Assembly: GCA_030638625.1 (NCBI GenBank)
Contig: DAOWEE010000365.1
Location: forward strand, 1-30,170
DNA length: 30,170 nucleotides
Direction: 5' to 3'
DNA from: Methanosarcinales archaeon
GTDB lineage: Archaea > Halobacteriota > Methanosarcinia > Methanosarcinales > Methanocomedenaceae
Under the pieces are notes generated by a model, which saw only the letters and a list, made by a program, of their open reading frames with translations, did not search any database and was not told the DNA's origin. The translations under genes were made by a program, and so were the position numbers. Positions 3,027-30,170 of the stretch are shown here, one piece after another; position 1 is the first letter of the stretch, and each line of letters starts with the position of its first letter.

Positions 3027-3057
3027 AATCTCATACTCCAAATAATTATATTACGGC

Positions 3058-3663: not shown

Positions 3664-3675
3664 GACTCTCACCGC

Positions 3676-8472: not shown

Positions 8473-10104
8473 ATGGAAATGGATACGGTGAAAAAGAAAT
8501 TGAAGGGAATCAGGATTCACCATATCCAATTATCAGTTCTTTTGGCATTATCCTTCGCTCTTCAATTCTCCAAATTGGACTGGGGAATGGTCACTAATAA
8601 TATCGGGATTAACGGACTTAACGCTTTTCATATCGTTGAACCGAATCTTGTGAACATACCCCTTCAAATGATGCAATCAGGTGACCTGAACCCGCACTTT
8701 TTCGATGAACCAAGCCTGTTCTACAATTCGATGTATGTTGTTTTTTCAGTAATTACAGGCATCATTGGACCATTATCATTTGTGGAATATATCAGGATTG
8801 CCCGGTTAATGACTATTCTTCTGAGTGTTGGGGTGGTTTTCCTGACTTATCTTACCGCAGAAAAGATGTGCAGTAGGGAAGTGGGCCTTTATGCAGCACT
8901 TTTCATGTCAATAAATCCATATTACCTCTGGTTCTCTTCCATAGCAAAAGAAGACCCGATGATGGTATTTTTCATCACTCTGTCCATGTACTTCTTTGTC
9001 AGGTATTTGAAAGATAGCAATCAGAGAAATTTTCTTTTTTCGATGGCGTCGGCCGGACTTGCTGTATCCACCAAATATCCTGCCGGAATGATGCTATTTT
9101 TACTGCCGGTATTATATTTATTTTACAATCAAACCGAACCGGTCAAAGAAAGAATTGTGGCCATAAGCAAATCCATTGCAATATACGCAGGAGCTTTCGT
9201 AATCGGCACACCTTTTTCAGTCTTGTCATTTGGAGAATTCATCAGAGGCTCTGTGGGTGAGCTGGGACATTATACTACAGGTCATCCTGGTTTTGAACAT
9301 TTTACCTGGTTCGTGCATGTACAGACCATTACCGGCCTGTGGGATGCAACCAATATATGGGGTAAGAACGGATATGGTCTTATCCTTATATTGTTTATAT
9401 CCGGAATGGTCACGATAATTTCTCAGCTGGAACATAATACAGAAAATAAACATAATGCAGAAAAACCAGGTAGATTTAACTGGTATTTAATCACAGGCTG
9501 GATATTATTAACTGTGCTGGTCTTCGGTTTCATAATTAAAGTCAAGATGGGGAACCAGATGATGATTCTGACCCCTGCTGCGATGGTGGTTTCAGGATAT
9601 GGATTTGCTGCTCTGTTACATAGATTGCCGAATCAGAATCTAAGGCGCATTATTGGAAGCGCGATCGTCCTCTTGATTTTCACATATGCCCTATCAGGTA
9701 TTGTGAGCAGTGCGAATGATAACCGGTATTATGCGGCTGATTGGCTTACTGAAAATGTCCCACCCGAAGCTATGATTGCCACGACCCTTTTTGTTCATGT
9801 ACCTGATGAATTCATTGAGGTATCTTTTCTTCCTATAAATACAGATTACCTGGAAAACTCAGATTATGATTACATTATCCTATCTTCATGGGACTTCGAG
9901 CGATATCTTGACTCACCTGATACGTATCCAGTCGAGTCAATGTTTTACCGGACCGTACTTGACGGAAATACTAGCTATAGACCGACAGCCAGTTTCAAGC
10001 GCACCGAAAATGCACGACAGAGAACCCTGAACTTTGGATTTGGTGCATTGACAAAAAGCGATTATCGCGGGGAAGTGGATATTTTTATTTTCCAGCGGAT
10101 GTAG
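8473..10104 (+). CDS. GT-C fold membrane glycosyltransferase (ArnT/PMT-like, GT39/GT83-like)
   Basis: Polytopic membrane protein with acidic first loop HFFDEPSLFY, then ARLMTILLSVGVV, ALFMSINPYYLWFSSIAKEDP and GLAVSTKYP, followed by a C-terminal soluble domain. Confidence 0.82.
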   Translation: MEMDTVKKKLKGIRIHHIQLSVLLALSFALQFSKLDWGMVTNNIGINGLNAFHIVEPNLVNIPLQMMQSGDLNPHFFDEPSLFYNSMYVVFSVITGIIGPLSFVEYIRIARLMTILLSVGVVFLTYLTAEKMCSREVGLYAALFMSINPYYLWFSSIAKEDPMMVFFITLSMYFFVRYLKDSNQRNFLFSMASAGLAVSTKYPAGMMLFLLPVLYLFYNQTEPVKERIVAISKSIAIYAGAFVIGTPFSVLSFGEFIRGSVGELGHYTTGHPGFEHFTWFVHVQTITGLWDATNIWGKNGYGLILILFISGMVTIISQLEHNTENKHNAEKPGRFNWYLITGWILLTVLVFGFIIKVKMGNQMMILTPAAMVVSGYGFAALLHRLPNQNLRRIIGSAIVLLIFTYALSGIVSSANDNRYYAADWLTENVPPEAMIATTLFVHVPDEFIEVSFLPINTDYLENSDYDYIILSSWDFERYLDSPDTYPVESMFYRTVLDGNTSYRPTASFKRTENARQRTLNFGFGALTKSDYRGEVDIFIFQRM

Positions 10105-12523: not shown

Positions 12524-12525
12524 AT

Positions 12526-13047: not shown

Positions 13048-13499
13048 CTCCTGAGTATAGCAATCCCTGCAATAACACCGACAACCATCCACAGACCGCC
13101 GAACAATGCCAATGGTTCACCATATGCAATCCTGAGCAATAGACGGATGGGACAGGCAGCAAGCAGGAGTGCAAAGGTCATAACCAAAAATCCCAGCAGG
13201 AACATTCTGGTATTACTATCAACCCCACTGTTAGGCTGAACATTGTGCCTTCGGGCAGCCAGATGTGCCCCCGCCATAATGCCAACTACAGTCAACAGGG
13301 GAGTAAATAATCCTGCATTTGTCACTTCTATAATGTTTGAAGAAATAAGATGGTTAAATATCCATCCCAGCATATCACGGCTATGGCAGGCGACACATAT
13401 CCCGTATGCCTGGGGGCTGGACCAATTGAATGACCACTGGGCTGCCACGGCCAATAACCCGATGGCTGTTCCCGTTATTGCTGGTGTTATCCTGCTCAT
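13035..13499 (-). CDS. YeeE/YedE-family half-size subunit A with CXXCH-containing loop
   Basis: About four TM helices with PQAYGICVACHSRD, PLLTVVGIMAGAHLAA and LLAACPIRLLLRIAYG. Start at ATG 13499, 4 nt after the upstream stop; the track extends it to 13541. Confidence 0.72.
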   Translation of the reverse strand: MSRITPAITGTAIGLLAVAAQWSFNWSSPQAYGICVACHSRDMLGWIFNHLISSNIIEVTNAGLFTPLLTVVGIMAGAHLAARRHNVQPNSGVDSNTRMFLLGFLVMTFALLLAACPIRLLLRIAYGEPLALFGGLWMVVGVIAGIAILRRWGS

Positions 13500-13503
13500 G
13501 GAC

Positions 13504-14007
13504 TTACCTTTTAAAGCGTATCCTGCAGACTGCATCTCCATCTGGTATCATTGTTTCTTTGGTCATTTTTGCGTCAGGGAAAAATTCGAAAAAGAGAGCT
13601 TCTGTTGCCTTGAAGTAAAGTCTGCATGCTTCCTTGATAAGGTCAGGTGATAGGCCCAAATCCTGCCATGCTTTGAACTTTGCACATGAAGAATGTTCAA
13701 GGACCACCTCATCAGGAGATACAATTTCCATTTTAATTGGAGAGATGATACTGTTGGTCTGCCCCCTTAGAGACATGCCGTAATATTTCCCAAAATCTTT
13801 GAAGGATTCAACCTTAAAGCCAGAATCTTTCATTGCCTTAGCATCCAGACGTCCCTTTTCTTCCATGGCACGTTCAATCATCTTTAATCCATTTGAACCT
13901 GATATTTTGTAGATCTCATTGATAATAGATCCGAACATAGTAGCATTATCAGACCCCATAAAATGAATGAATTCCCTACAGTTTTTCACCGCATTTTCGT
14001 TATGCAT
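13504..14007 (-). CDS. L-2-amino-thiazoline-4-carboxylate hydrolase-like / V4R-fold protein
   Basis: 167 aa with pattern HSSCAKFKAWQDLGL...EAC...FFP..KMTKETMIPDGDAVCRIRF (three conserved-looking Cys). First gene of the minus-strand run. Confidence 0.6.
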   Translation of the reverse strand: MHNENAVKNCREFIHFMGSDNATMFGSIINEIYKISGSNGLKMIERAMEEKGRLDAKAMKDSGFKVESFKDFGKYYGMSLRGQTNSIISPIKMEIVSPDEVVLEHSSCAKFKAWQDLGLSPDLIKEACRLYFKATEALFFEFFPDAKMTKETMIPDGDAVCRIRFKR

Positions 14008-14280: not shown

Positions 14281-17200
14281 ATGATAAAAACAAATGGAAT
14301 TTTGTTAAAACAAGTGTTAGTAGGTTATATATTAATTTCAATCATAATTTTATCAGTATTTGCTTCAATTACTCCCGGCCTAGCCGAAGGTTTGGAAGAA
14401 ACAGCAATAGACAATTCTTTTGAATTAGTTTCTCAAAATGGCCTGAACATTCTCTATAGATTGTTCAATCCTTTAATGGGTACTGCCTCCGAACTTGCCA
14501 ATATTGCAAATGATTCATCAAACACCCTAGATATCACCAACTCAACCCTTAACACATCAACAAATTCCACTCCGGCCCCAACCCCAACTTCAACATTAGC
14601 TCCGACCTTAACTCCAACATCGATTCCAACACTAACTCCAGAACCAGTATTCAATTCATCAGAAGAGACCTCATCCAATAATCCACAAACCACCAGCCCG
14701 AAAAAAACCCATGTAACAGGCAATGTCAAGGACCATGAAAACCAGCCAGTATCAACAAATATCTATGTGACAGGACATGATAACCGAAACCGGATGATAC
14801 ATACATCCAGCCAGAATTTCAATCTTGAACTTGAAGAGGGCGATAATGTTGTCTTTGATGCCGGGACAAAAGGTGTGACTGCCCGGTTCAAAATAAAGGG
14901 CAACTCCAGCAATTCCATCATTACCCTTGACAATTTCGGCAAAGCCAAACCTGCTATCACTGGAACTCCACAGTTCAACTCAATGAAATTCGTTGAGGTT
15001 CATGCAGATAACACTGACTACGAAACTGTCACCATCACAATCTCATACTCAGAGGACGAACTATCCGGATTTGACGAAGGGCTACTGACAATCTATCATT
15101 ATACAGGTGGGCAGTGGATACCAACCATATCTCATGTCGATAGAGCCTCGAACACCATCACTGCCACCGTTAACAGTCTATCCTATTTTGCTGTGGGACA
15201 GGGTAGTGGAATCAACATTTTTGCCAGATTTGACAGTACAGTGAATCCTGATGATACTATCACTGTATCCGGTGGTGTATACTATGACAACCTGACAACT
15301 GTACCGGACGCAGATATTAATATCACAATCCAGACAACTGCCATCAGTACAGATATAACCACAGATAGTCTTGGTAATTTCAAAGCAACCCTCCCCCCAC
15401 CTGCCAGCACTGGCTCTTATAACCTCAAGATAAATGCCGTCAAAGGTGCCATGGATGCCAATACCACCAGCAACCTTCAGGTAACTTCCACACCTCTGTT
15501 CAGGATAACCGGAACCATGCAGATAGACAATGAAGATGTGGTTGCATCTGATGCAAACATTACCATCAGCAGTGAACTTCCAGCACAGTCAGTATCTGAC
15601 AGTGCCCAGTTAACACTTACAGGTACAACATCGGTCACAGGTACCAAAATTTACAACCTGTTTACAGATACTAAGGTGGATGACGGTATTAATGCCACAG
15701 GGACATACACGTTCCTGGTGGATTCCCTCACATCTGGTGAGGTCACCAAGAACTGGGCCAGTATCTATCTGTATGCTATCTCCTATACCGGGCTGAGTGT
15801 TGCCGAAGAAAGTTATGACACATATCTGGACGGGACATACAAGGATTCTTCTTCTTTTGTCAAGCCGTGGGACCAGTCGACATGGTACTGGAACAATTCC
15901 TTAGCAACAGGAGATATTCTATATAATACCACACAGACCGTAGATGTGGTCACCCCGAATCCGTCCACACTGGTCCGGTTCAACCTGACCGGGGATATGC
16001 ATATCAATTTCACCAGTTCAGGTCTTAGCAAACCTTCAAATTCAAAACTGTATGCTGATAATGTGCTTCTACTCTCCACCACCGGTGACCTTACAACAGA
16101 GAATATTAACCTTACCGGTTTTCTGGGTGATAGCAATGACCTTATCGTTACTTCAGATACAAAAGGCGGTATCAGTTATGCCCTGACATCCCAGTTCCAC
16201 AAATATATGAACGCTTCCGTGGTCGATGACGGAGTTAACTATACAGTCACGCTTACAGCCACCAATAACAATTCAGAATCATGGTACTCTCCAGCCTTTG
16301 GATATACTGTTCCCCAGGGTGCCGGGAATTTCGTGATTATTGATAAGGATAACAATGAACTGAATGTCACATCTTCATGTACTCTTCCATCTGATGGTGG
16401 TGAAGTTGACATACCTGCATCAGTGATAGGTGAGATTAAAAGCGGCATTATCAGGACATTCACACTTTCGTATAGTCTGAAGCAGTTGGATGTTACAACC
16501 CGTCCTTTTGCTGACACTTACATGCCCGGGCAAACTGTTGATATCTATACAGATGTGTTGTACAATGGGTCTGTTGTCAGTGATGCGACGGTTACAATAA
16601 CTATAAAAGACCCACTGGATGTAACAGTATTTAACGGCCCTGCAACATGGAACGGTAAAAATTATTCCATCACAAAAACCACCAACGATACCTGGCTCAT
16701 TGGCGTTTATCATGTGAATGCCAGTGCTTCAAAGACCGTGGACAGTGTGCTTCGTACCGGCATTAATAGTACCAGTTTTGTTGAAAAACGTCTCATATTA
16801 TATGTGCAGGCCAACGGTCCCTATCCACCACTTAGAAACATCACCCTCTCAGGCCGGGCATATTACAGCGATGAGAGTGCAGAAGGGGGCAAGACTGTCA
16901 ACATCTCTGTGGGTGGAATCAATACTACTGCCACTACAAATGCCACCGGACATTTCCAGACAATTGTTCCGGGTATGGCAGTCGGTTCTTACCCAGTCAT
17001 CGCCAATATCACCAACGGATACGGCCTTACCGATTCAGATAGCGATACTGTACTCGTGCTGGACACACCATTCTTTATCCTTATTGATACTGAACTTAGC
17101 GAAACATCAGGCCAAGCATTGCTTGAACCCGACCATAATTTTACAGTAAACATTCCCAATAGCATGGATGTGCTCAGTTCCACCATCACACTGACTGGAA

Positions 17201-20200
17201 TTACACAAAAGACCGAAGAGTATGACATCTCACCACCTCCCATTTCAATGCTTTCCATCGGTACCACACAATTCGATTTTGTAAACGGGACATTTACCGT
17301 GATAGTACCTCCGTACAGAAGCGTTACCGTCAATGATGTCAGTATGACAGTCACAGCCTTCCCACAGGGCTCGGGTGTCCAGGAATCGGTATTCAATAAT
17401 TCGATTGACGGCATTGATGTAGGTGAATCACGATATGTTGTTCCTGATACACCTTCAACCCACACCTGGACTGATGATATCACTGCAAGAGTTACACCAG
17501 GGACCGCACATGATGTCAGGATTACGAAACTTGATACATTCACAATCGATTACAAGTTCTTAGTGATGATGCACGTGAACAGGACAGGATTCCTGGACAC
17601 ACCATTGAATCCACGTGCATATGTGGTCGGCAACATCATTTATGCTGAACCGGGAGATATGCTGACCAATTCACATACTACAGACATTACTAAGTTCCTT
17701 GAGGCGGGCAGCAATTCAGTAAACTTTGTCAATGACCGCAATGCACTGGTGAATTATATTATACAAACAAGGGTCAGAGATTGGAATTATACACAAGAGA
17801 CAATAGCAGAGATTCCCAGCAGATTCGAGATTGAGAACGTATTGTACGCTGCAGCTACTGACCAGAAACTGATGAACCCTGAGGTCAGGCATCCGTTAAA
17901 GAGATTAGCATCTAATCTTACAGTCTATGACATTGACAATAATACCGACATAACAGCAAGCTGTACCGTAGCAGATAACGAACTGTTCATCCCGACCAAC
18001 CTTATCGGTCCCATTAACGCGGGCGATACCAGACTCTTCAATGTCTCGTATGATGCACCCCGACCCAATATCTCACCGTCGCTCAACACATCAGTATGCA
18101 ACCATAATGATACCATCCTGATATCAGTAGACATAGAATTCTACGGCGTCCCGATGACTGATGCGAATGTTTCTGTCACAATCGCCAACAATACCAATAC
18201 AACCTGGCAGGGTACTCTGACCCATACCGGAAGCGGGACATATACTGTCCTTTACCAGATACCGGCCAACGCAACATTGGGCATCTATAATGTCACAGTG
18301 TCTGCATATAATGAATCTACCAATATGGACGACGAAGTGGTGTCGTACCAGTTAAGCCAGCTTACCATTACTCCATTTACTATCGGGCCATTCGTGACCG
18401 GGAATGGTGGAAATATAAACGGGAATGTGAACGATTCCAGGACTGATGCACCTATAAATAGCGCAACGGTTGAAATTACCATTTCCAACCAGTCAGGAAT
18501 CGTGAACCAGACAGAAGTGTATTCCAATGTCGCCGGGTACTTCTCTTTTGTATGGGACGCAACAATGGCAGGAGATTACCTTCTCACGATAACTGCCAAT
18601 GATTCTGACCTCACAATAGGTACACTGGAACAACCCATTGCAGTAGAATACGATGTGGTACTGGTACCGAACAGGACAGATTACAATGTCAATTATACAG
18701 CCACACTGAACGTGTCTGTACACGACCTGGGCAGTATTGATGTGCCAGGTGCTAATGTATCCGTACTTATCGATATTCCGGCAGCAGGTAATGAGACACT
18801 GTCAACCGGTAACGGACGGTTATCGTATCTCGGCGGCGTATATACGGGGACGTTCAATACTACCGCTAACATGGGTACGTACAATTATACTGTAAATGTT
18901 TCAAATGTTACGGCTAACGGCACCATTACGGGTAATGATGTCGGCAGTTTCAGGGTGAGCGACCTACACATAACCGAAATGTCGGACAAATTGGTGTATA
19001 TTGTTGATGAAAACGTGACTGTATGGGGCAGTGTTGAGGATTTGGAAACAGGACTCTTTGTTGAAAACGGTACTTACAATATCTCTTTATTCAACTCATC
19101 GGGTTTTGTGACTTCCAGGTCAGGGAGTATATTGACAGTACCGGACACTATAGGTGCGGCATTGTATGATGAAGATACGTTCGAGGTTGCAGGTGATGAC
19201 TGGAATTCTCGCAACAATGAAGACCCTGTCCGTGACTCCTCCACTGCTTATGCCGGGTCATGGAGTTTGCATATGACCTGGCCCGGTACTACTGCCTGGG
19301 GAGGACGAAACTTTGAAGGGACCAATAACCTTGAAGCTGGTCAGACCTCTTCAGGATATTCCACCACTGATTATCCGTACATGAGCATGGCATACCGTAT
19401 CAGTCCTGACGACAAGATCAATATGCTCATACTGGTGAACGGTGCATGGCGTTCGTTAGATGTTACCCAGGGAATCAATACAACAGGGAGTTACCCCACA
19501 GTGGCTAACTGGGGTTCGGTAAATTCAGATGACCAGTGGCACTGGACCGAGATTGATCTGGACGGGCAATTGGACGCATCCATGGGAATAGGGAATCACC
19601 AGATAACTGGTATTATCTGGTATCCAAATAGTGCAATAGACGGGTATCTTACCGGCGATTTCTGGATAGATGATTTCAGGATTTCCAATAACTCCATTGC
19701 CACTTCATATGAGGAGACGTTCAGCGGTCTTCCTGCCGATCCATATACTGCAATGGTAGATATATCATACCTGACTCTAGTTGGAGCAAATTCATCTGAT
19801 TTTACTATCAATTACAATGTTAACTCCAGTATTCCCTCTCCACTGTACAGTGTGGGCAGGGATGTGAATATCAATATCAGTGTATTTGATACGGGTTCGA
19901 TTCCTGTTACAGGTGCCAACCTTACAGTCAATATCACGAACAGTACAGGCTTAGTCAAAAGCATATCAGGTTCAAATATTACCGATAACAATAACGGCTA
20001 CTATAATACTACATATATTACTGAAATTGAAGGCGATTTCAATATATCGGTCCATGTCGAGAAGGGCTCGGCTGTAGGTGATGCTCCTGTGTTGCCATTC
20101 AGGGTAACCCAGTTCTATGTGGACGTTGCACCTGAATTCCAGTGGTATGAGGTTGGAGATAATGTTACATTCACCACACTTACAGGCCGGCTTTGGGACT

Positions 20201-23200
20201 TACAGGGAGCACCAAAATGGGCCAATGTCACAATTCAAGTATTCGGCCCTGTGGGTACCCTGATACAGAATATCACACTCACAAACCAGTATGATAACTT
20301 CACTCACAGTTTTTATCTGGGTTCCACCAACAATTCAGGTACTTACTCCATCCAGGTAAATGCCAGCGAAATTGAATCAGGTGGTAACCTTGCAGCATCC
20401 AATACATCATCGTTCAATGTGGAATATTTCGTGGATTCTGCTACGAACCGTTCGCAATATAATACTGATGATACCGTCAACGTGACACTTAATATCAAGA
20501 ACAGTACCACCAATATCAACAGTGCCTCCGTTGATGTCAATGTGACCTATATTGGTCCGTCCGATTGGTGGAATGCAAGTTACTGGAATTTTGACCGTGA
20601 GTACAGAGTGGGTATCAGTACAGTAAATACATATAACCGCAGCAGGGAAGATACTTATATTGTGGTTCGTGGTTCTGACCTTGCGTCTGCGGGAGTATCA
20701 TTGACCAACCTGCCTATAAATTCGACAAGGGTTATTGCGTATTCAACACAGGAAAACCTTTCATCCAGGAATGAGGTTGCCAGGGTTGTATCTGATATTA
20801 ATGGTGACGGGTACCTGAACACCAGTGATGAAATTATATTCCTTGCCAATTTCTCAGCCAGTGAAAGTAAGAATTACTGGTTGTATTACGATTACGGTTA
20901 TGACATAACCGCTTCCCCCGAATACACCATTCCCCTGAAACTTCAGTTATACCTTGCCGAAGAATTCATTATAACCAGTGATTACTATGCCCGTGTTTAC
21001 TATAAACACAGTAACAGGGACGGCACATTCGGCGGATATGTCCAGATAGATGACAACAATTATTATGCCAGGGGGGCTGTCATTGCTGATTTCGACAATG
21101 ACGGTGACTATGATGTAGTATCTGGCGACCGTTACAACCTCTTCTTCCATGAATGGACCGATGTGGGTACATTCACTAAAACCAGTGTCACGCCAACCTT
21201 CTCTGCCAGTAATTATTTAATGGATATGGCTACTGCCGATTTTGATGAAGACGGCAACATGGATTTCATTGTAGGCGGCAATAACGATGACCTGTACCTG
21301 TACGAGGGTGATGGGATGGGGGATTTCACTAAAATCACCATAACCACCAACGCACCGGGAACAGCAGGCAGAGGGAAAGATGCGGGTGACGTGAACGAAG
21401 ACGGGCATATGGATTTTGTCTATGCAGAAAACCCGACCGGTAAGGTATATGCATATTATGGAAATGGTGCCGGTACATTCGCAGCTCCGGTCGAGCTTGT
21501 GACCTTACCAGATACTGACCCCTATGGTGTTGCATTGGGCGATTTTGATAATGACGGTCATCTTGATATCATTGCAAATGGCGGAGCAGGAGGGGCATAT
21601 CATATCTACAGCGGGGACGGGACTGGTATTTTTGTTGATGAAGGCATGAAATTTGATGTCAATCGCCTTGGTGGTGTTGATGCATTTGATTATGACCATG
21701 ACGGTAACCTTGATGTTATCCATACCACTTATGATACTGAATATACCTATTACCGGGCAGGAAATGGCAATTTCGGATTCGGGTCATTGAGTCTTGGAGT
21801 CAATGGTTACAATGTAATGGGTATCAGTGCACCGCCAATGCAGGATATTATGATTCCATCCATTGGTATCAAGCAAAACCTCAGCCATACCCAGGTAGGA
21901 AGCAGTCTTGCCACTGGTCTGGGTAACGGTAACTACAATGCTGAGTTCACTCTCTCGGATGCACAGCTTGGTATTTACCTGGTTGAAACCGATGTTACGT
22001 CACCCTGGCCGGGTGATGATGCTGTTACATTCTTTGTACGCAGCCTGGATGAAGTAAATAATACCTACGGCCCGCACAACTTCAATGGCACACACCAGTC
22101 CCCCATCCTTCCTGTTATAATTTCAGGGACCATCAGGGATAGTGAATTCAATAATACCCTGAACAATGCCTATGCAAATATCACTATCAGGTACCCCAAT
22201 AACACAGTTGCTGCCTACCAGTCAATAACTACCGATGCCAATGGTATTTTCAATCACGACTTTACGTCCCAGTTCAACAGCAACTCACCTGCCGGCACCT
22301 ATAATGTCAGTATCCTGGTAAACGATGGCGGGATAATTCAGTTAATTGAGACTTACCTTACAGTATCAGATGTGTACTCCAGTTGGGCTGACCCTGCCAA
22401 AGATTACCGGGTTGCTATTATACTGAACAATTCAGCCAATTCAACACCAGTAACGTACAACGAAAGAGGTTTCGTGCTTGAATTGCCTGGCAGTGTAGCT
22501 CAATCTTCAGTGGCAATCACGGATATCAACGGGAACGCTGTTGGCAACTCGCTTATCTGGGACAATGCCAATACCATAAATGTCACACTGGACAACTTCA
22601 GTCTCGGCATGTTCGAAGGCGGGCTTGTCTACATTTATTTTGACAGGGATGCACAACTTCCTCCAGATAATACATCACTTACCAGCAGTATCTGTCCGTT
22701 AATTGAAGGTGCAATTGAAGGATATTGGATGGTCATCACAAACGACCTTGCCATATACAATCCCTCCACTACTGCCCAGATAACTGCAAACCTGACACTT
22801 GCCAATGGTACACAATTAACTGGTTCCACTGTGAATTTCAGTGTTTATTATCCAGATATGGCACTTGCATACGGACCGCACAATATAGTCAGCGACCCTG
22901 CAAATATCTCGGTTTCAGGAAATTCAAATACACTATCATATTCAATTCCAAACCTGAAAGGCATATATACAGTCGTTGTCAATGCCACATCCCCCAACGG
23001 CATACCCAGGACAGAAATCTCAACATTCAATGTGGGCGGTCTGGGCGTAACAGCAGATACTGACAGGTCATATTACAATACCAGGGATGATGTATGGCTC
23101 ACAGTCGATGTTACTGATTTAGGTGTCCCTGTAAACAATGCTTTAGTTACAGTGGATTTCAATGACCCCAGTGGTCTGTTACCCTATGAATACAACGAAA

Positions 23201-26200
23201 TAAATTCAACGAATTCAGATGGTATTGCAATCATACACTGGCCAATGATATCCCCGGATTCACCAGTCGGGAACTATTCCATCACAGTGAATGCCAATAC
23301 CGCCAACGATTCAGGCTATAATGGTTCACAGACCATAGAGATTGACAACTATGTAACAACTCTCGACCTGAACGATAATTTAGTAAGCCTTACCAATCCC
23401 GTCACAGCCAGCGGTTCCACAACCCACAACGGCAGTGAAATCCCGTCCTGGGTCAACATTTCAGTGACGTACCAGTCTGCATTTATCGATGATACCGTTC
23501 CCTATGGTGCAAGTACAGGAAATCAATGGATATGGGATTACAATAACGTGCACAGCGGCAGTTACTCCCATCTCCAGGAAGTCCAGGGTCCGGCAAGTGT
23601 TCAGCATATATTCTACGATGCATACAGCGGATACCGTGCAGGCAGCGGCGAAAATATCTCGGTCTGGGTTTATGTTGATTCCATTCCTGAAACAGTTGAT
23701 GAGATTATGGTCCAGTTCCATGCCAACGATAGCTGGAACCACCGTGCCTACTGGGGTGTGGACAATATTCCCCTGGGTACCAATAATACCACATCGAGAC
23801 AATATATTGGCCCACTTCCCGCAGCAGGTACATGGTACGAACTTGTCCTGACCAGTTCACAGGTTGGCCTGGACGGACTGGTAGTGGACGGCATGGCCTT
23901 TGCCGTAAACGAGACCAGCAGCAACGTGGCAAGGGTATGGTTCGATGAAGTAACCTTCGAATTTGCCAATACTCATGATTCATATCTTGAGAACCAGAAT
24001 GTCTCAACCCCTTATTCGTATGTCATATCCAATACTTTCACAGAAGGATTCAACGACACCTTCACTACATTCAACAGCACTGAATGGGACAATTCTTCCA
24101 CCTCAATCCACAACATCTCAGCAGAATGGATGGAATTAAACGGCAACGGCCTTGATTTCAATGCCAATTTCTCAGGCAGTACCACCTATTCCAGAACAGC
24201 GTACCCGGTACTCACCGCCGATTTCATGACCGATAACCTCAGCGGCGGACTGGTCGTTGCAGTTGAAGGCAACCCCACATCAGGCTATCGCCGCCATGGT
24301 ATCTATATCGATAAAGCCGATGGCATACTCAAAACCCAGACCTATGACCTTGACGGCTGGCATTATGAAAACCTGTTCACTCCCGAGATTGGTAAATGGT
24401 ACACAATGGAGGTCCGGTTCTATGCTACGGAATCACAGCTATTCGTGTATTCCAGGGATGACAGTTCCAGGCCCATGCCCGATAAAGCAGACAGTACCTA
24501 CAACCTGACCGACTGGAACCCGAATTTCCATTTCTGGACATTCGACAATACAGGCTACATTGATAATGCTGCAGTCACCACCCGCTCTAATACCAGTGCA
24601 CTGCCATGGGTAGGCGATTATATCGTAACAGGCCTAAGCAGTTATTCTAACCTATACACCGTAAACGTCAGCACCATACTGGTATCCAACTTGAACATCA
24701 CTGTCAATACAGGTGATTCCTATGACCTCACAATAGGAAACCCTGAACTCAATAATGTCACCATCAACGGAACTGTGCAGGATAACCGCTCAGGTGTACC
24801 CCGTCCGTCCCCCGTACTTGTGTATGTAACCGCACCTGACGGATTGATATCGGTCTACAACCTGCAAACAGATGTTAACGGTTCCTTCACAGTCAGTTTC
24901 ACAAGGCCATCCCTTATCGGTACTTATGATGTAACCGTCACAGCCAAGGATACAGCAGGTACCACCGGCAGGACCGATACATCCTTTGACATCCAAATCG
25001 GGTCAACCATTGCACCCACCATCGAGACCATCAATCTCATGGATACTGCCATACTTACGGTTGAACTGTTCGATGACGTTATCTTCGATGATATGGAACA
25101 GGTCACTTCCAACTGGTCATACCGTGCCGGTACTACAGGAACCGTCCGGAATATGTCAGAAGAAGTCCATGACAGAACACGCCTGTATCATAAGAGCGGG
25201 ACCCAATCCCAGAAAGTGGATTATTACGTCACCAAAAGCACAAACGAATACATGTACCTTGAATCGGGCTTAGGTCCAATTGATGTGTCACAGGTCAACA
25301 ATATAACATTCTGGCTCTACCTGGACCTGGTTGACGCATTCGATGCAGTGGCACTGGTCCTTGAAAATGACGCCACAGGAACGAGCAGTGACGAGCGTAT
25401 CTACGGTCAAAACCCCGTACCTGGCTGGAACTATTACTCATTCAATGTCAGTGATTTTGGTATGGACCTCACTCATGCTCACTACCTTACAGTCCTGATA
25501 GATGACGATAATAGTGCCAGTGAAGTAGAAACCAGAGGTTCGGTCTACATTGATGATTTCAAGGTCATTAACGGCAATTCCATCACAGGTGCCAGTGTAT
25601 CCATCAACATCACCAAACCTGGCATGTCAGTATTGAGTTATTCAACTCCGGCAGACATTACCGACCTTGGAAACGGAAGATATTCATTAGACTTTGCAGG
25701 AACTGATGAATATGGCAACTATAACATATCAGCCATATCCACCAGTGATGGTTACACCAGTACCGCCACTACCCAGTTCATAGTAGACCGTCTGAATGTT
25801 TCACCGGTATTACTGGAAACACCATACATAGTTGGTGATACCGGTAACTTCAGTGTCAGTGTCCATTCCAATATGTCAACACCATTCGATGGAACAGTTT
25901 CCCTGAACCTGACCCTACCAAACGGCACATCTGTTAATTATAACACATCCGCATTCAGCCAGTCAACTGAAAATTATGCCCGCACCGGTACTGCCGGCGG
26001 GTCAGGATTTGGCAGTGTAACCAGAATCAACGACGGTTCATTTGTATATCCTGCAACCACTGCTGCCTGCATTGGGGATTATGCACAGATAACATGGGCA
26101 CAACCCGTAACCATTAACCAGGTCATGGTGTATTACGATACCAACAAATGGCCAACCTCATACAGGATACAGGTACTGGATACCGACGGTGTCACCTGGG

Positions 26201-29200
26201 TTGATAAAAAGGTCGTGAATGGATTCACTACAACCAGTTTCCCTTATGTCATCGACGATATTCCCACCTCGACCACAAAAGGTGTGCGTATCTCCTATGA
26301 AACTTCCAATAACGCCCAGAACATATACATCTTCGAAATGTGGGTCTATAATACAGCAGCCACATTCACTCCCTTGTTACCCATATCAGGAGACTATACC
26401 GCCCAGTTCACTGCCCTGGACTCAAAAGATGTCAGTGGAACCACTTCAATTACAGTCCCTGTCAACTTCAACGTTGAGACCGTCTTTGATAAATTAAGCT
26501 ATGACCCTGGCGACAATGCCACGGTATCTATCAGTGTCTTTAACGGCACCCATTACGTGCCAGGTGTTTCAGTCTCTTCACAATTGAGTTATATCGGTAA
26601 CGGGTCATTGATTGCAAGCAACTCGACGACCACCGATTCGAATGGTACTGTGGATGTTATGTACCAGATTCCTGAAGACTATTCATCATATTACATTAAT
26701 TCATCAGTAGCACATAACGGAATAACAGGTTTGGATTCGGAAGTTACCACGTCTGCCCATCTTAAAATGTGGATAGACCCTGCTGAAGTCCTGGTTGGTC
26801 ACCCAAGCTGGAATGCTGACCTTACTCCTGAAGAATACAGGGATATTTCCATTCATGCTGAATTCCTGACCAAAGCCGGTCATATCCTTGATGACCAGAC
26901 GATTACTGCCAATATCTACAAGTATGACGGAACTCTTGTAACCAGTCTTCCCTTGACCGGAGTAGATGGTCTATATACGGCTGATTATACCATCGCCGGA
27001 AACAGTCCCGAAGGCACGTACTGGGTTGAACTGGATAAATATCCAGGCATTAATGAATATTTCAGTGTCATGGAATGGGGCTGTACCAGATGTCATATAA
27101 ATCCTGGTATGGACTATAATCACTATTACGCCCATGCCATTACCAGTGGTGCCTACGGTAATTCTGACGGGCCAGTGTCCCCATCCAATTTCAGCAAGGA
27201 ATATGTTCATGAGGTGCATCCGCTGGTAGACCCTGCTCCGGCAGGTACAGGGGGTTCAAATTGTGGTTATCACAACAATGCAAGGGATGTTAATTGTGTC
27301 AAATGTCACCTGACCGAAGTACTCCCCTCTGCCTGTCCTGATTGCCATAACAGCGGTCAGGATAAATGGTCTAATGTTTTGTCAGAAGATTATGGTGCAG
27401 ATGTACATGCAGGCATCAATGTTGACACAGCCAAAAACAAAATCGCTAATTCATCACATGGAGGCAATCCATCTTTTGCAGTGGACAGCAATGATGATAC
27501 GTACTGGTCTCCTGATGGTGTCACCAATCAGATCATGGAAATCGACCTTGATGGTGCATATTATGTGGACGGTGTCCGAATTGCGATGTCCAATTATAAA
27601 TCCACCTATACCGTGCAAGGACTGAACAATGGCAGCTGGATAACCCTGATATCGTCCACCACATATTCAAATTATGATAATGAACAGCTCTATACTTTCA
27701 GCAGCCAGAATATCTCAAGGGTCAGGTTCACGGTCAGTTCATGGAGCAGAGTGTGGACTGGTACGGGTTATTGCAGCTCTCCCACCCATACTGCCGCCGT
27801 TCTTACCGAACAGCCGAAACTTAAATCCCTGAATGTATATTTACCCAACAATGTTTCCCTGACATTACTCAATCCGGATACACATGATTCATGCCAGGTC
27901 TGCCATGGCGGCGATATCTCCAACGATATCCAGCCCACAATTCCGGATTGTACAGACTGCCACCCTGAATCCTCGGGTTCCGGTATGCAGGTGATGCCGG
28001 ACAACATGAGCACTGTCAGCAGGGAACTGGAAGATTATGAGGATGTTTCAGATATCATTGTATATTCCGCACCTGGTTTCCCTGTCTCTACAGTCAGCCT
28101 GACGGCATCAACCGACCAGGCTGTGGAAGGGACAAAATCAGGTAAACTGGATTATTCCATGGCTCTGGGTGTTGGCAGGATATATATTGACCAATCAGAC
28201 CTTGAATTCACCAATGCTACCAGTATCAAATTCTGGCTTTATGGAAATCCGGCAGACGACAATACCCAGTTCCAGGTCAGTATCAGGAACAATAAGTCAG
28301 GCAAATGGCATTACAACACAGCCCAACATCTGAACTGGTCAGGCTGGAAAGAGGTCGAAATTCCAATAACATCATTGAGCGAACTTGAAATTCTTTATAT
28401 CTCCCATGCAGATATGCTTCGGATACAGCTTGAGAATTATGATTCAGACAGTGGTACCATTTACATTGATGATTTGCATGTGGAGCGCAAAGGCACACAT
28501 ACCCAGTATCAGGAAATTGAATGCGGTACGTGTCATGAATCAGTACACAATACCCAGTATTCTTATGATTGTGAGAATTGCCACCAGACACAAACCCATG
28601 GCAATATGACAGCTTCTGAACCAACATGTGTCAACGTGGATTGCCACCATTATATGGAAAATGGCAGCCTCATTGTGCGAAATAGTACAAATGAAACCAC
28701 CCTGGTTGAGATACCAATGGATGGTGCCAAGATATCAGAATGCGGCGTATGCCATAGTCTGGCCGAACCTCACGATAAACAGTGGAACTATGTATGTATG
28801 GACTGTCACCGCGACAGCGAACACGGTCAGGTAGATGAGTCATATACCGACTATGAAAAAGCGTCAACCTGCCTGAAATGCCACAATGACCCCCATGACC
28901 TCCAGAATGAACTATCAGCCAAAGGCGGATGTAACGGCTGTCATCAGCACCGTATCCACGGCCAGAACAGTCTCACCACCCCATACAATGAATCCATCCA
29001 TTTGGACTGTTTGCGGTGTCACGGAAACCCTGTGAATGATTCAGAACCAATACCTGTAGGCCTCGGTCATCCCGGCGAGATACATATCACACAGACCTAT
29101 GGACTTACCGCAGCAGAGTGCATGTTCTGTCATGAGAATGCCACAAACTCGTATGAATTGCATACCGGATTGAATGTGGATTTGGCAGATACCACACTGG

Positions 29201-30170
29201 TCGAATCAATTGAGAATGAAAGTGTTTGTATCATCTGCCATGACCCTGTGCCATTATTTAGCAACACTAGCCTGGAAGCAAGAGATGACCTCTTACTCGA
29301 ACCCCATGCCACCCAGGTGGCAGGTCACGGTAATGTCAGTTGCTTTGTATGTCACGGTCACAGCCCTGCCCAGTTAACCCTGAATTTCGGTGCGGATTGT
29401 GTAGGCTGCCATATTAATGAAGCAGTGGCTCCTGTAAATTCCACTAACGGCACCGATATCCCACCCACACAGGTCCTGGGTCACGGGAACACCGAATGTT
29501 CAGAGTGCCACGGGCATACCAACTCACAACTCACTTTTGTAGGTGAAACCGCGGAAGAATGTATGGCATGCCATGAAAATGCGTCCGCTGAAGTTAAGTT
29601 ATTGGAATATGAGGACCCCGTATCCAATGGAACCGTGCCCTTAAGCCAAAGCGGTAATGTGTGGACAGTAACACCCCCACAGGTTGTGGGTCACGGCAAT
29701 GTTACCTGTCTTGAGTGCCACACCCATGCTCCCAGCGACTTCGTAAATGTTGAGGATTTCCTTGGTCCCGATTGCACAGCATGTCATATGAATGAAAGCA
29801 GGAACGTATCATTGATCAATGACACCATACCAAAGAACAGCAATACCGTTGTAGTGGATAATTCCAATTCTACCTGGGTTGTCACATCACCAATAGTCCT
29901 GGGTCATGGTAATGCATCCTGTGCTGAATGTCACGGGCATACCAATTCTAACTTGACTTTCCTGGGCAGCACTATCAGTTCATGTATTGACTGCCATGAG
30001 AACAGTTCCAGGGAATCATTGCTGCTGGATGATACCATACCTGAATCAGATACTACGACCATAATCAACGATACTGTTAATCCCAAGATAGTAAATCCAC
30101 CGCAGGTAGATGGGCATGGAAATGTGAGCTGCTTTGTATGCCATGACCACGCACCCAGTGATTTCAGCAA
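14281..30170 (+). CDS. Giant secreted adhesin-like multiheme c-type cytochrome (>5,296 aa, at least 23 CXXCH; 3' end beyond window)
   Basis: Manual translation of frame +1 from ATG 14281 finds no stop to the window end. It has a signal peptide (MIKTNGILLKQVLVGYILISIIILSVFASITPGLA), a Pro/Thr linker, many Ig-like repeats, FG-GAP repeats, and discoidin- and CBM-like sandwiches. CXXCH motifs start at 27082, 27295, 27334, 27892, 27949, 28522, 28570, 28741, 28795, 28870, 28930, 29008, 29119, 29227, 29341, 29398, 29497, 29560, 29707, 29773, 29920, 29983 and 30130. It is absent from the supplied ORF track. Confidence 0.95.
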   Translation, partial: MIKTNGILLKQVLVGYILISIIILSVFASITPGLAEGLEETAIDNSFELVSQNGLNILYRLFNPLMGTASELANIANDSSNTLDITNSTLNTSTNSTPAPTPTSTLAPTLTPTSIPTLTPEPVFNSSEETSSNNPQTTSPKKTHVTGNVKDHENQPVSTNIYVTGHDNRNRMIHTSSQNFNLELEEGDNVVFDAGTKGVTARFKIKGNSSNSIITLDNFGKAKPAITGTPQFNSMKFVEVHADNTDYETVTITISYSEDELSGFDEGLLTIYHYTGGQWIPTISHVDRASNTITATVNSLSYFAVGQGSGINIFARFDSTVNPDDTITVSGGVYYDNLTTVPDADINITIQTTAISTDITTDSLGNFKATLPPPASTGSYNLKINAVKGAMDANTTSNLQVTSTPLFRITGTMQIDNEDVVASDANITISSELPAQSVSDSAQLTLTGTTSVTGTKIYNLFTDTKVDDGINATGTYTFLVDSLTSGEVTKNWASIYLYAISYTGLSVAEESYDTYLDGTYKDSSSFVKPWDQSTWYWNNSLATGDILYNTTQTVDVVTPNPSTLVRFNLTGDMHINFTSSGLSKPSNSKLYADNVLLLSTTGDLTTENINLTGFLGDSNDLIVTSDTKGGISYALTSQFHKYMNASVVDDGVNYTVTLTATNNNSESWYSPAFGYTVPQGAGNFVIIDKDNNELNVTSSCTLPSDGGEVDIPASVIGEIKSGIIRTFTLSYSLKQLDVTTRPFADTYMPGQTVDIYTDVLYNGSVVSDATVTITIKDPLDVTVFNGPATWNGKNYSITKTTNDTWLIGVYHVNASASKTVDSVLRTGINSTSFVEKRLILYVQANGPYPPLRNITLSGRAYYSDESAEGGKTVNISVGGINTTATTNATGHFQTIVPGMAVGSYPVIANITNGYGLTDSDSDTVLVLDTPFFILIDTELSETSGQALLEPDHNFTVNIPNSMDVLSSTITLTGITQKTEEYDISPPPISMLSIGTTQFDFVNGTFTVIVPPYRSVTVNDVSMTVTAFPQGSGVQESVFNNSIDGIDVGESRYVVPDTPSTHTWTDDITARVTPGTAHDVRITKLDTFTIDYKFLVMMHVNRTGFLDTPLNPRAYVVGNIIYAEPGDMLTNSHTTDITKFLEAGSNSVNFVNDRNALVNYIIQTRVRDWNYTQETIAEIPSRFEIENVLYAAATDQKLMNPEVRHPLKRLASNLTVYDIDNNTDITASCTVADNELFIPTNLIGPINAGDTRLFNVSYDAPRPNISPSLNTSVCNHNDTILISVDIEFYGVPMTDANVSVTIANNTNTTWQGTLTHTGSGTYTVLYQIPANATLGIYNVTVSAYNESTNMDDEVVSYQLSQLTITPFTIGPFVTGNGGNINGNVNDSRTDAPINSATVEITISNQSGIVNQTEVYSNVAGYFSFVWDATMAGDYLLTITANDSDLTIGTLEQPIAVEYDVVLVPNRTDYNVNYTATLNVSVHDLGSIDVPGANVSVLIDIPAAGNETLSTGNGRLSYLGGVYTGTFNTTANMGTYNYTVNVSNVTANGTITGNDVGSFRVSDLHITEMSDKLVYIVDENVTVWGSVEDLETGLFVENGTYNISLFNSSGFVTSRSGSILTVPDTIGAALYDEDTFEVAGDDWNSRNNEDPVRDSSTAYAGSWSLHMTWPGTTAWGGRNFEGTNNLEAGQTSSGYSTTDYPYMSMAYRISPDDKINMLILVNGAWRSLDVTQGINTTGSYPTVANWGSVNSDDQWHWTEIDLDGQLDASMGIGNHQITGIIWYPNSAIDGYLTGDFWIDDFRISNNSIATSYEETFSGLPADPYTAMVDISYLTLVGANSSDFTINYNVNSSIPSPLYSVGRDVNINISVFDTGSIPVTGANLTVNITNSTGLVKSISGSNITDNNNGYYNTTYITEIEGDFNISVHVEKGSAVGDAPVLPFRVTQFYVDVAPEFQWYEVGDNVTFTTLTGRLWDLQGAPKWANVTIQVFGPVGTLIQNITLTNQYDNFTHSFYLGSTNNSGTYSIQVNASEIESGGNLAASNTSSFNVEYFVDSATNRSQYNTDDTVNVTLNIKNSTTNINSASVDVNVTYIGPSDWWNASYWNFDREYRVGISTVNTYNRSREDTYIVVRGSDLASAGVSLTNLPINSTRVIAYSTQENLSSRNEVARVVSDINGDGYLNTSDEIIFLANFSASESKNYWLYYDYGYDITASPEYTIPLKLQLYLAEEFIITSDYYARVYYKHSNRDGTFGGYVQIDDNNYYARGAVIADFDNDGDYDVVSGDRYNLFFHEWTDVGTFTKTSVTPTFSASNYLMDMATADFDEDGNMDFIVGGNNDDLYLYEGDGMGDFTKITITTNAPGTAGRGKDAGDVNEDGHMDFVYAENPTGKVYAYYGNGAGTFAAPVELVTLPDTDPYGVALGDFDNDGHLDIIANGGAGGAYHIYSGDGTGIFVDEGMKFDVNRLGGVDAFDYDHDGNLDVIHTTYDTEYTYYRAGNGNFGFGSLSLGVNGYNVMGISAPPMQDIMIPSIGIKQNLSHTQVGSSLATGLGNGNYNAEFTLSDAQLGIYLVETDVTSPWPGDDAVTFFVRSLDEVNNTYGPHNFNGTHQSPILPVIISGTIRDSEFNNTLNNAYANITIRYPNNTVAAYQSITTDANGIFNHDFTSQFNSNSPAGTYNVSILVNDGGIIQLIETYLTVSDVYSSWADPAKDYRVAIILNNSANSTPVTYNERGFVLELPGSVAQSSVAITDINGNAVGNSLIWDNANTINVTLDNFSLGMFEGGLVYIYFDRDAQLPPDNTSLTSSICPLIEGAIEGYWMVITNDLAIYNPSTTAQITANLTLANGTQLTGSTVNFSVYYPDMALAYGPHNIVSDPANISVSGNSNTLSYSIPNLKGIYTVVVNATSPNGIPRTEISTFNVGGLGVTADTDRSYYNTRDDVWLTVDVTDLGVPVNNALVTVDFNDPSGLLPYEYNEINSTNSDGIAIIHWPMISPDSPVGNYSITVNANTANDSGYNGSQTIEIDNYVTTLDLNDNLVSLTNPVTASGSTTHNGSEIPSWVNISVTYQSAFIDDTVPYGASTGNQWIWDYNNVHSGSYSHLQEVQGPASVQHIFYDAYSGYRAGSGENISVWVYVDSIPETVDEIMVQFHANDSWNHRAYWGVDNIPLGTNNTTSRQYIGPLPAAGTWYELVLTSSQVGLDGLVVDGMAFAVNETSSNVARVWFDEVTFEFANTHDSYLENQNVSTPYSYVISNTFTEGFNDTFTTFNSTEWDNSSTSIHNISAEWMELNGNGLDFNANFSGSTTYSRTAYPVLTADFMTDNLSGGLVVAVEGNPTSGYRRHGIYIDKADGILKTQTYDLDGWHYENLFTPEIGKWYTMEVRFYATESQLFVYSRDDSSRPMPDKADSTYNLTDWNPNFHFWTFDNTGYIDNAAVTTRSNTSALPWVGDYIVTGLSSYSNLYTVNVSTILVSNLNITVNTGDSYDLTIGNPELNNVTINGTVQDNRSGVPRPSPVLVYVTAPDGLISVYNLQTDVNGSFTVSFTRPSLIGTYDVTVTAKDTAGTTGRTDTSFDIQIGSTIAPTIETINLMDTAILTVELFDDVIFDDMEQVTSNWSYRAGTTGTVRNMSEEVHDRTRLYHKSGTQSQKVDYYVTKSTNEYMYLESGLGPIDVSQVNNITFWLYLDLVDAFDAVALVLENDATGTSSDERIYGQNPVPGWNYYSFNVSDFGMDLTHAHYLTVLIDDDNSASEVETRGSVYIDDFKVINGNSITGASVSINITKPGMSVLSYSTPADITDLGNGRYSLDFAGTDEYGNYNISAISTSDGYTSTATTQFIVDRLNVSPVLLETPYIVGDTGNFSVSVHSNMSTPFDGTVSLNLTLPNGTSVNYNTSAFSQSTENYARTGTAGGSGFGSVTRINDGSFVYPATTAACIGDYAQITWAQPVTINQVMVYYDTNKWPTSYRIQVLDTDGVTWVDKKVVNGFTTTSFPYVIDDIPTSTTKGVRISYETSNNAQNIYIFEMWVYNTAATFTPLLPISGDYTAQFTALDSKDVSGTTSITVPVNFNVETVFDKLSYDPGDNATVSISVFNGTHYVPGVSVSSQLSYIGNGSLIASNSTTTDSNGTVDVMYQIPEDYSSYYINSSVAHNGITGLDSEVTTSAHLKMWIDPAEVLVGHPSWNADLTPEEYRDISIHAEFLTKAGHILDDQTITANIYKYDGTLVTSLPLTGVDGLYTADYTIAGNSPEGTYWVELDKYPGINEYFSVMEWGCTRCHINPGMDYNHYYAHAITSGAYGNSDGPVSPSNFSKEYVHEVHPLVDPAPAGTGGSNCGYHNNARDVNCVKCHLTEVLPSACPDCHNSGQDKWSNVLSEDYGADVHAGINVDTAKNKIANSSHGGNPSFAVDSNDDTYWSPDGVTNQIMEIDLDGAYYVDGVRIAMSNYKSTYTVQGLNNGSWITLISSTTYSNYDNEQLYTFSSQNISRVRFTVSSWSRVWTGTGYCSSPTHTAAVLTEQPKLKSLNVYLPNNVSLTLLNPDTHDSCQVCHGGDISNDIQPTIPDCTDCHPESSGSGMQVMPDNMSTVSRELEDYEDVSDIIVYSAPGFPVSTVSLTASTDQAVEGTKSGKLDYSMALGVGRIYIDQSDLEFTNATSIKFWLYGNPADDNTQFQVSIRNNKSGKWHYNTAQHLNWSGWKEVEIPITSLSELEILYISHADMLRIQLENYDSDSGTIYIDDLHVERKGTHTQYQEIECGTCHESVHNTQYSYDCENCHQTQTHGNMTASEPTCVNVDCHHYMENGSLIVRNSTNETTLVEIPMDGAKISECGVCHSLAEPHDKQWNYVCMDCHRDSEHGQVDESYTDYEKASTCLKCHNDPHDLQNELSAKGGCNGCHQHRIHGQNSLTTPYNESIHLDCLRCHGNPVNDSEPIPVGLGHPGEIHITQTYGLTAAECMFCHENATNSYELHTGLNVDLADTTLVESIENESVCIICHDPVPLFSNTSLEARDDLLLEPHATQVAGHGNVSCFVCHGHSPAQLTLNFGADCVGCHINEAVAPVNSTNGTDIPPTQVLGHGNTECSECHGHTNSQLTFVGETAEECMACHENASAEVKLLEYEDPVSNGTVPLSQSGNVWTVTPPQVVGHGNVTCLECHTHAPSDFVNVEDFLGPDCTACHMNESRNVSLINDTIPKNSNTVVVDNSNSTWVVTSPIVLGHGNASCAECHGHTNSNLTFLGSTISSCIDCHENSSRESLLLDDTIPESDTTTIINDTVNPKIVNPPQVDGHGNVSCFVCHDHAPSDFS
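14569..14646 (+). repeat. Pro/Thr-rich low-complexity linker within the giant ORF
   Basis: TPAPTPTSTLAPTLTPTSIPTLTPEP. Confidence 0.85.
21085..21720 (+). repeat. Five FG-GAP/VCBS-like Ca2+-binding repeats (beta-propeller) within the giant ORF
   Basis: ADFDNDGDYDVV, ADFDEDGNMDFI, GDVNEDGHMDFV, GDFDNDGHLDII and FDYDHDGNLDVI at about 50-aa spacing. Confidence 0.9.
27082..30144 (+). other. Multiheme region of the giant ORF (23 CXXCH plus one CX4CH within the window)
   Basis: Motifs in order: CTRCH, CVKCH, CPDCH, CQVCH, CTDCH, CGTCH, CENCH, [CVNVDCH], CGVCH, CMDCH, CLKCH, CNGCH, CLRCH, CMFCH, CIICH, CFVCH, CVGCH, CSECH, CMACH, CLECH, CTACH, CAECH, CIDCH, CFVCH. Confidence 0.93.
29311..30170 (+). 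repeat. Tandem diheme repeat (xQV.GHGNxxCXXCHxH...CXXCH), alternating A/B types, at least 4.5 units
   Basis: The His of GHGN starts at 29326, 29482, 29692, 29905 and 30115, giving spacings of 52, 70, 71 and 70 codons. Confidence 0.9.

Follow-up and report, generated by a model that had tools for sequence, protein, structure and literature searches.

Giant multiheme cytochromes (MHCs) of anaerobic methanotrophic (ANME) archaea, i.e., secreted proteins of ANME-2, ANME-2d and ANME-3 with 20 to more than 80 CXXCH motifs, include MHC-A (typically 1,200 aa), MHC-B (2,200 aa), MHC-C (2,400 aa) and MHC-D (3,200 aa) (PMC12180501). Members whose heme-free N-terminal regions have carbohydrate-binding-type folds are already described, among MHC-B, -C and -D (Chadwick et al. 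2022, PMC9012536; ANME-3 study, PMC12180501). The published proposal is that MHC-C contacts the partner cell and MHC-B crosses the S-layer (PMC9012536; PMC12180501); the ANME-3 study reports a B/C locus with cytochrome-maturation (ccm) genes, and regards MHC-B as the conduit and MHC-C as the outer extension (PMC12180501). Heme numbers of up to 113 are reported from Methanoperedens (Leu et al. 2020), and an 86-heme protein from ANME-2c (Chadwick et al. 2022, PMC9012536), which is probably the public protein P0011, with its 86 CXXCH. Here we analyze a 30,170-nt stretch of DNA (contig DAOWEE010000365.1 of assembly GCA_030638625.1; hereafter the window) from a marine cold-seep ANME-2 archaeon, placed by its nearest named relatives ('ANME-2 cluster archaeon') and by cold-seep runs. 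The window carries the larger part of a gene for a 6,943-residue protein, hereafter the giant protein, in which a heme-free arm is followed by a heme region. With 66 CXXCH and an N-terminal signal it belongs to the general class above, as an unusually large variant of the known giant ANME cytochromes that fits none of the MHC-A, -B, -C and -D classes as described and is functionally closest to MHC-C.

The window is the complete contig C250 of a metagenome-assembled genome (MAG; 84% complete, 385 contigs, median 3.7 kb). The frame of the giant protein occupies positions 14281..30168 of the plus strand (frame +1), that is, the first 5,296 of 6,943 codons, and reaches the 3′ contig end without a stop. 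The remainder lies on a second contig, C246 (L004:3257-8338, minus strand), whose reverse complement matches the end of the window over exactly 141 nt, which we take for a k-mer overlap left by the assembler. Once joined, the frame contains 66 CXXCH, plus 2 CX3CH and 3 CX4CH, and terminates in …MGTYWACSTCH-TAG, followed by two codons and then TGA. A role of the TAG as a pyrrolysine codon was considered and rejected; read-through would extend the protein by just two residues. An earlier note on this DNA, made from the letters of the window, had described one open frame of more than 15.8 kb with a Sec-type signal, cut at the contig end, and this description is borne out by the completed gene.

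The gene is also found outside this assembly. A public protein, P0003, has exactly 6,943 aa and differs from the window protein at 35 residues; it is encoded on an independent 44,906-nt ENA scaffold from a different sample. The junction between arm and heme region (nt 27082) is bridged by Logan contigs of three cold-seep runs, which extend up to 3,247 nt beyond the window end and show flat depth, zero joints and zero indels. Within the genus, a genome of 100% completeness (G012) encodes a full-length ortholog on a 107-kb contig; this protein has 6,593 aa and 67 CXXCH, shares the C-terminus, and its gene stops with TAA. A partial ortholog (GCA_023544495.1, 'ANME-2 cluster archaeon'; 3,618 aa, 78% identity), the only match when genome contigs were searched for related loci, fills an entire 10.9-kb contig and spans the junction with five CXXCH. 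Because the independent scaffold, the Logan contigs of three runs and both orthologs all carry the junction, we conclude that this is a genuine single polypeptide and no chimera. The joining of a long heme-free, domain-rich arm to a multiheme region in one chain, as put forward in the earlier note, is therefore real, and the chimeric join that the note had named as its refutation is excluded. The frames of the window protein, P0003 and the 6,593-aa ortholog are gene-length, without stops and intact in all. Self-BLAST of the arm detects almost no internal repeats, so that repeat collapse in the assembly is no concern. The GC content of the frame (0.459) is that of the genome (0.454), and the gene is chromosomal, since the same contig also encodes rpoD and the ribosomal proteins S4 and S13. 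Upstream of the ATG, a Shine-Dalgarno-like GGGTGG and, before it, a TTATATA box were read by eye in an AT-rich 273-nt spacer.

The protein begins with two Lys and a hydrophobic core of about 20 residues, followed by TPGLA|EG (14281..14385, plus strand). In a hydropathy scan this segment, at about residues 5-30, is the sole hydrophobic, transmembrane-like one, and the cleavage-type site is kept in the G012 ortholog (TPSLAEG; common pattern TP[GS]LAEGLE). It is thus probably a cleaved Sec signal peptide, judging by its sequence, and may alternatively act as an uncleaved signal anchor. Next comes a low-complexity linker rich in Thr, Pro, Ser and Asn (14563..14730, plus strand, from reading of the sequence), which varies in length; the ortholog has a 29-aa insertion. 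Residues 1-4267 include 5 Cys and no CXXCH; these motifs set in at residue 4268, and exactly 23 lie in the window, as the earlier note had in essence stated.

Along the whole arm, Pfam detects beta-sandwiches of the MG2, Filamin, Big and CarboxypepD_reg-like types. The stretch aa 400-1300 (15478..18180, plus strand) is blank in Pfam. Its AF2 model (mean predicted local distance difference test score, pLDDT, 83.6) is all-beta and consists of about nine beta-sandwich domains of the macroglobulin (MG)/Ig-like type, for which Foldseek returned the MG arrays of complement and alpha-2-macroglobulin (A2M), adhesin extenders and the GhpA grappling hook. This module has 11 relatives among 1.84 billion representatives, and is common to giant proteins of Methanoperedens. 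Further along, an FG-GAP (integrin-alpha-like) beta-propeller is recognized at 20968..22140 (plus strand; PF13517, E = 3e-39, five stretches), with five Ca-binding loops of the DxDxDG type at aa 2270, 2320, 2370, 2421 and 2470. A discoidin-like stretch at aa 3905-4075 is sub-threshold (F5_F8_type_C_2, E = 0.04 in a Pfam search at E <= 1), with an ESM-atlas lead of 0.84; the atlas gave leads only for such other arm modules and nothing usable for aa 400-1300. The jelly-roll-looking modules at aa 1520-1720, 3050-3440 and 3590-4070 yielded one marginal CBM22 match (E = 0.033) against PDB sequences, and an NCBIfam search of the protein added no arm-domain assignment. The earlier note had seen Ig-like, lectin-like, discoidin and FG-GAP domains in the arm: the Ig-like and FG-GAP assignments hold by Pfam, but the discoidin and lectin domains with support are found after the first hemes. 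As a whole, the protein (~754 kDa) has a pI of 4.45, 4% K+R, and N-X-S/T sequons at 2-2.8-fold their frequency in shuffled sequences. We thus predict, from the sequence, a heavily glycosylated, acidic, secreted and extracellular protein.

The heme region starts at 27082..30168 (plus strand) and is made of c7/c3-type and MtrC/MtrF domain II/IV-type units (Pfam: Cytochrome_C7, c3, MtrC/MtrF II/IV); PF22113 matches with E = 1.5e-32 in five stretches of the C-terminal part and one of the window part. At the junction, the first five hemes are interleaved with two statistically supported lectin-type domains, both of which are past the first hemes and hence outside the heme-free 4,267 residues. One, an F5/8 type C (discoidin) domain (aa 4391-4491; 27451..27753, plus strand; PF00754, E = 2.6e-13), separates heme 3 from heme 4 and sits in a 186-residue gap between CXXCH 4352 and CXXCH 4538. 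The other is a CBM_11-like jelly-roll between hemes 5 and 6 (aa 4573-4700; 27997..28380, plus strand; PF03425, E = 4e-7). From there on, about 60 closely spaced c-type heme sites extend to the very last residue (…CSTCH-stop). Neighboring CXXCH are a median of 33 residues apart, and a further 96 His could serve as distal ligands.

How does this protein compare with the described classes? The MHC-A and -B classes are marked by an S-layer domain with a heme motif in the linker and by a C-terminal helix, both of which are missing here. The S-layer domain PF07752 (DUF1608) matched no segment of the giant protein at E <= 0.01, and none is encoded on the contig of the G012 ortholog. The C-terminal anchor that the earlier note had suggested looking for once the gene was extended to its stop is absent: there is no C-terminal transmembrane helix, no hydrophobic segment outside residues 5-30, and no PGF-CTERM, though the organism uses PGF-CTERM elsewhere. 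Peptidase_M6, the annotation of the MHC-B N-terminus, was not found in the genome. With MHC-C the protein shares the absence of an S-layer domain and of a C-terminal helix, a large heme-free N-terminal region, and a location near cytochrome-maturation genes. However, the corresponding region of MHC-C is a pectin-lyase-like beta-helix, while the arm is composed of MG/Ig-like modules and FG-GAP, with beta-sandwiches in the AF2 model, and the protein is about three times as long (6,943 versus ~2,400 aa); it is thus set apart from MHC-C by description. The beta-helix families PF13229 and PF05048 had no match in the giant protein by Pfam, the published classes resting on InterProScan superfamily models. 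Nor was a heme-bearing beta-helix protein found in the organism's own genome or in the complete same-genus genome G012. Beta_helix matches do occur in both, at G000:C26 1680-4127 (minus strand), with a PGF-CTERM tail, and at G012:C19 879-4739, where several dockerin-ending proteins are encoded in a row; as candidates for MHC-C they were rejected, being heme-free surface proteins of the PGF-CTERM or dockerin type.

Giant relatives of the protein include three Methanoperedens proteins, P0007, P0008 and P0009 (5,412-6,532 aa; 'hypothetical protein' at NCBI), which are collinear with the giant protein over the entire length at ~30% identity. Each has an N-terminal signal, a heme-free arm of 3,000-3,400 aa that begins with the rare module also seen here, a junction where beta-domains separate the first hemes, and 52-70 hemes. 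The best-conserved stretch is the heme 4-5/CBM11-like junction, at 43-47% identity (BLASTP, own 4537-4774 versus P0007 3229-3461). Unlike the giant protein, which stops earlier at a conserved CSTCH tail, these homologs continue into an S-layer domain (PF07752) and finish with a membrane helix, and they lack the FG-GAP propeller and several of the mid-arm modules. A paralog-like protein, P0006 (5,402 aa), shares the scaffold at 40-55% identity but carries Laminin_G_3, pentraxin/sialidase-N lectin and DUF2341 cassettes in the mid-arm instead. A further set of MHCs, from the genus of the giant protein, is armless (P0016, P0018 and P0019, 2,233-2,246 aa; family to 2,251): their signal peptide directly precedes heme 1, and only short FN3/MG2 inserts are present. 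These proteins are 42-44% identical to the C-terminal 1,100-1,400 residues of the giant protein, with near-identity over the last ~45 residues (…WVFY..EPG.LHNQ.MGTYWACSTCH), and have neither S-layer domain nor transmembrane helix. In G012 and G015 they coexist with the giant protein as paralogs.

More distant likenesses are confined to parts of the protein. MtrC and OmcA of Shewanella, outer-surface cytochromes that deliver electrons outside the cell, share PF22113 heme domains and the beta/heme alternation seen at the junction. This likeness is at the domain level only: MtrC and OmcA are decaheme lipoproteins of ~650 aa on a porin complex, while the giant protein is archaeal and has 66 hemes and an arm, and the NCBIfam whole-family models of the MtrC/OmcA type score far under cut-off on it. 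Fibrillar adhesins, such as the RTX protein MpIBP and GhpA of Aureispira, have the same chain of beta-sandwich extenders with interspersed ligand-binding modules and are among the structural matches to aa 400-1300; the arm differs in that it contains neither RTX repeats nor near-identical tandem repeats. A2M and complement have MG2 domains, as does the arm, but the thioester motif (CGEQ; searched as C[GL]EQ) is absent from the giant protein. We know of no adhesin that carries a heme wire. The giant protein is also the longest multiheme cytochrome polypeptide among the matches listed in our protein searches. In the papers that we consulted, we found no description of an MG/Ig-FG-GAP arm of such length, nor of the arms of the Methanoperedens giants. 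The earlier note had not recognized the architecture as described. The protein does fit none of the published classes, yet the claim of novelty goes too far: giant MHCs with binding-type N-termini are published, and the collinear Methanoperedens homologs of 5.4-6.5 kaa are public.

Arm and heme region differ in their conservation. From one species to the other, identity is 88-92% in the wire core (aa 4801-6000) and 44-78% in the arm, and the G012 ortholog lacks two whole arm modules, at aa 1617-1812 and aa 3586-3763. The dN/dS of the arm is about 0.16 (dS 0.76), which indicates that the arm is under purifying selection; the values obtained for the gene span 0.12-0.17. In a family-level sample we found the arm in genus g1 only, and an order-level sample of 31 genera has its N-terminal module in 3 of them. 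On a contig-end fragment (G246:C226, L033) from genus g28 of another family of the order (f4), this rare module recurs at 54% identity; such a copy would agree with horizontal transfer, which has been reported in ANME-3 for large MHC genes. Among strains, variation is focused on a patch of the arm at aa about 737-1190 (16489..17850, plus strand), delimited by the differences to P0003 and by alternative unitigs: 29 of the 35 differences fall at aa 740-1163, and in run X2 two alternative unitigs coexist in the patch, one showing 0 and the other 14 differences over 168 nt, with the remaining gene nearly identical. The substitutions are of all types and not A-specific, and a diversity-generating retroelement was rejected as their origin. 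The patch lies in the part of the arm that is best conserved between species, which suggests an allele imported by recombination. A mosaic history with interspecies recombination is likewise suggested by the uneven dS between the window gene and its G012 counterpart (G012:C65; L028/L029), which is ~0.84 for aa 4801-6000, ~1.1 for aa 201-1200 and saturated (>2) for aa 1201-4267.

Our preferred reading, to which we assign a probability of about 0.6, is that the giant protein is an extracellular wire, fed at its C-terminal heme tail by S-layer cytochromes, with the arm directed outward and binding a glycan or protein target. That is, the heme part would conduct electrons outside the cell, and its conserved C-terminal tail would take them from separate S-layer-embedded cytochromes; S-layer MHC genes of MHC-A and MHC-B size are indeed present elsewhere in the organism's own genome and in G012. 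The arm would project from the cell and fasten the wire to a target coated with glycan or protein, most probably a sulfate-reducing partner or the intercellular matrix, and the lectin-flanked hemes 1-5 would be the output end. The proposed polarity, with the heme end on the cell side, rests on the collinear Methanoperedens homologs, which carry their S-layer domain and membrane helix at the heme end. A binding role of the arm is suggested by the FG-GAP, F5/8C and CBM_11 domains, by the modules gained or lost between orthologs, by the lectin cassettes of P0006 and by the strain-variable patch. Likewise, the extracellular character is suggested by the sequon enrichment, the low pI and the scarcity of K and R, and a role as a wire by the number and close spacing of the CXXCH. 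The preferred reading further agrees with the ccm genes on both sides of the gene and with the model published for the analogous MHC-B/MHC-C pair. The earlier note had proposed a 'grab-and-wire' appendage. Contact with a partner is a reasonable idea; it is already published for MHC-C, and for the giant protein we infer the function.

Several observations weigh against this reading. The polarity would reverse if the N-terminal segment were an uncleaved anchor. If the arm were stretched out past the last heme, a target held at its tip would be far from the hemes. The label 'lectin-like' is largely visual for most arm modules, which have no significant family match, and an AF2 model of aa 2990-3790, from an 8-row alignment, was discarded for its pLDDT of 46.5. 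On the contig of the G012 ortholog no ccmE is found, i.e., linkage to ccm genes is not conserved there. Finally, the transcript levels of other large ANME MHCs are low (PMC9012536), and no RNA run was listed.

The first of these observations leads to an alternative that we consider unlikely, namely that the polarity is reversed and the protein tethers itself to its producer. Either the arm would then grip the glycosylated S-layer or the exopolymer matrix of the cell that made it, or an uncleaved anchor with its stalk would be formed by the N-terminal segment and the Thr/Pro-rich stretch; the arm would serve as a tether or scaffold, and the heme wire would be a free, distal or matrix-embedded conductor. 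The position of the sole hydrophobic segment, ~20 residues long, N-terminal and ahead of a T/P-rich linker typical of surface-protein stalks, is as expected from such an arrangement, as is the missing C-terminal anchor. In addition, the glycans bound by lectin-type modules could just as well be those of the producer, and aa 400-1300 fold as generic extender-type beta-sandwiches. However, it is by the heme end that the collinear Methanoperedens homologs are anchored, through an S-layer domain plus a transmembrane helix at the C-terminus, the small-residue cleavage site after the hydrophobic core is conserved, and the armless paralogs keep the same C-terminal tail, with heme 1 coming right after a normal cleavable signal.

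We consider it improbable that the giant protein is a terminal reductase of metal oxides or humics, whose arm and lectin-flanked hemes would bind mineral or organic particles in a partner-independent extracellular respiration. Homologs do occur in Methanoperedens, for which metal-dependent anaerobic oxidation of methane and expression of large S-layer MHCs have been reported, and MtrC/OmcA-type domains are present, with a beta/heme alternation at the junction that may be likened to that of MtrC/OmcA. Yet the host is an ANME-2 archaeon of a marine cold seep, and ANME-2 usually live together with sulfate reducers; the folds of discoidin, CBM and FG-GAP domains bind glycans or proteins. Lastly, an assembly artefact or a decaying, unexpressed relic gene, for which one could invoke the fragmented MAG, the split over two contigs, the internally repetitive heme part and the absence of listed RNA runs, is largely refuted and essentially excluded by the identical architecture seen on the independent scaffold, in the Logan assemblies of three runs and in two further species, by the lack of stops and indels, and by the flat depth, the matching GC and the low dN/dS.

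The surroundings of the gene include cytochrome-maturation genes. Upstream in the window is a ccmF paralog (5515..7443, plus strand; Pfam). Downstream of the stop, C246 encodes, at L004 1861-3102, ccmC, a 50-aa open reading frame (ORF) that is possibly ccmD, and ccmE, and then a PNP/MTAP gene, and the ENA scaffold of P0003 shows the same order. The MAG contains 3 CcmE and 9 CcmC/CcmF/CcsA-type genes in total, and the complete relative G012 has 5 CcmE. A different arrangement is seen for the armless P0018 of an ANME-2 archaeon (L030; GCA_019429385.1, JAHYIS010000022.1, 16853-19109), which is followed by ResB and CcsA-type genes, i.e., System II genes of cytochrome c biogenesis, as opposed to the System I (ccm) genes around the giant gene. 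Between ccmF and the giant gene lie, as context, a PMT-type (GT-C) glycosyltransferase gene (8473..10104, plus strand) and, on either side of it, a gene for a PD40 beta-propeller (one at 7403-8407, the other at 10085-11113, both on the minus strand), all by Pfam; this trio could be related to glycosylation of the Thr/Pro linker. Elsewhere in the window are a Se/S-carrier-like gene beside two half-size ORFs, one for a YeeE/YedE sulfur-transport protein (PF04143) and one without Pfam match (11999-13541, minus strand), a tRNA (1571-1655, minus strand), and, in the GC-rich 5′ end of the contig (3-980; GC 0.57 versus 0.45 for the genome), a truncated frame in which a PAPS-reductase-like domain is joined to a 4Fe-4S ferredoxin domain.

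The giant protein bears on how ANME archaea hand electrons to partner bacteria and how they recognize the right ones: in it, a long chain of hemes is physically linked to a large and variable set of putative binding modules. Genes of this kind are routinely broken at contig ends in MAGs. More tentatively, and with some doubt, the protein may represent an as yet unclassified ANME giant-cytochrome class, an 'armed wire', in which a well conserved 66-heme conductor would dock on an S-layer conduit through a C-terminal heme tail peculiar to its family, and a fast-evolving, cassette-swapping arm of 460 kDa at the far end would set the specificity for partner or substrate. The variable patch and the swapped cassettes would then be candidate specificity determinants, and the armless paralogs and the anchored Methanoperedens versions could be viewed as natural 'controls'. 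If this is true, the family, i.e., the giant protein, its anchored Methanoperedens version and the armless paralogs, would record how extracellular electron conduits of archaea are assembled and re-targeted.

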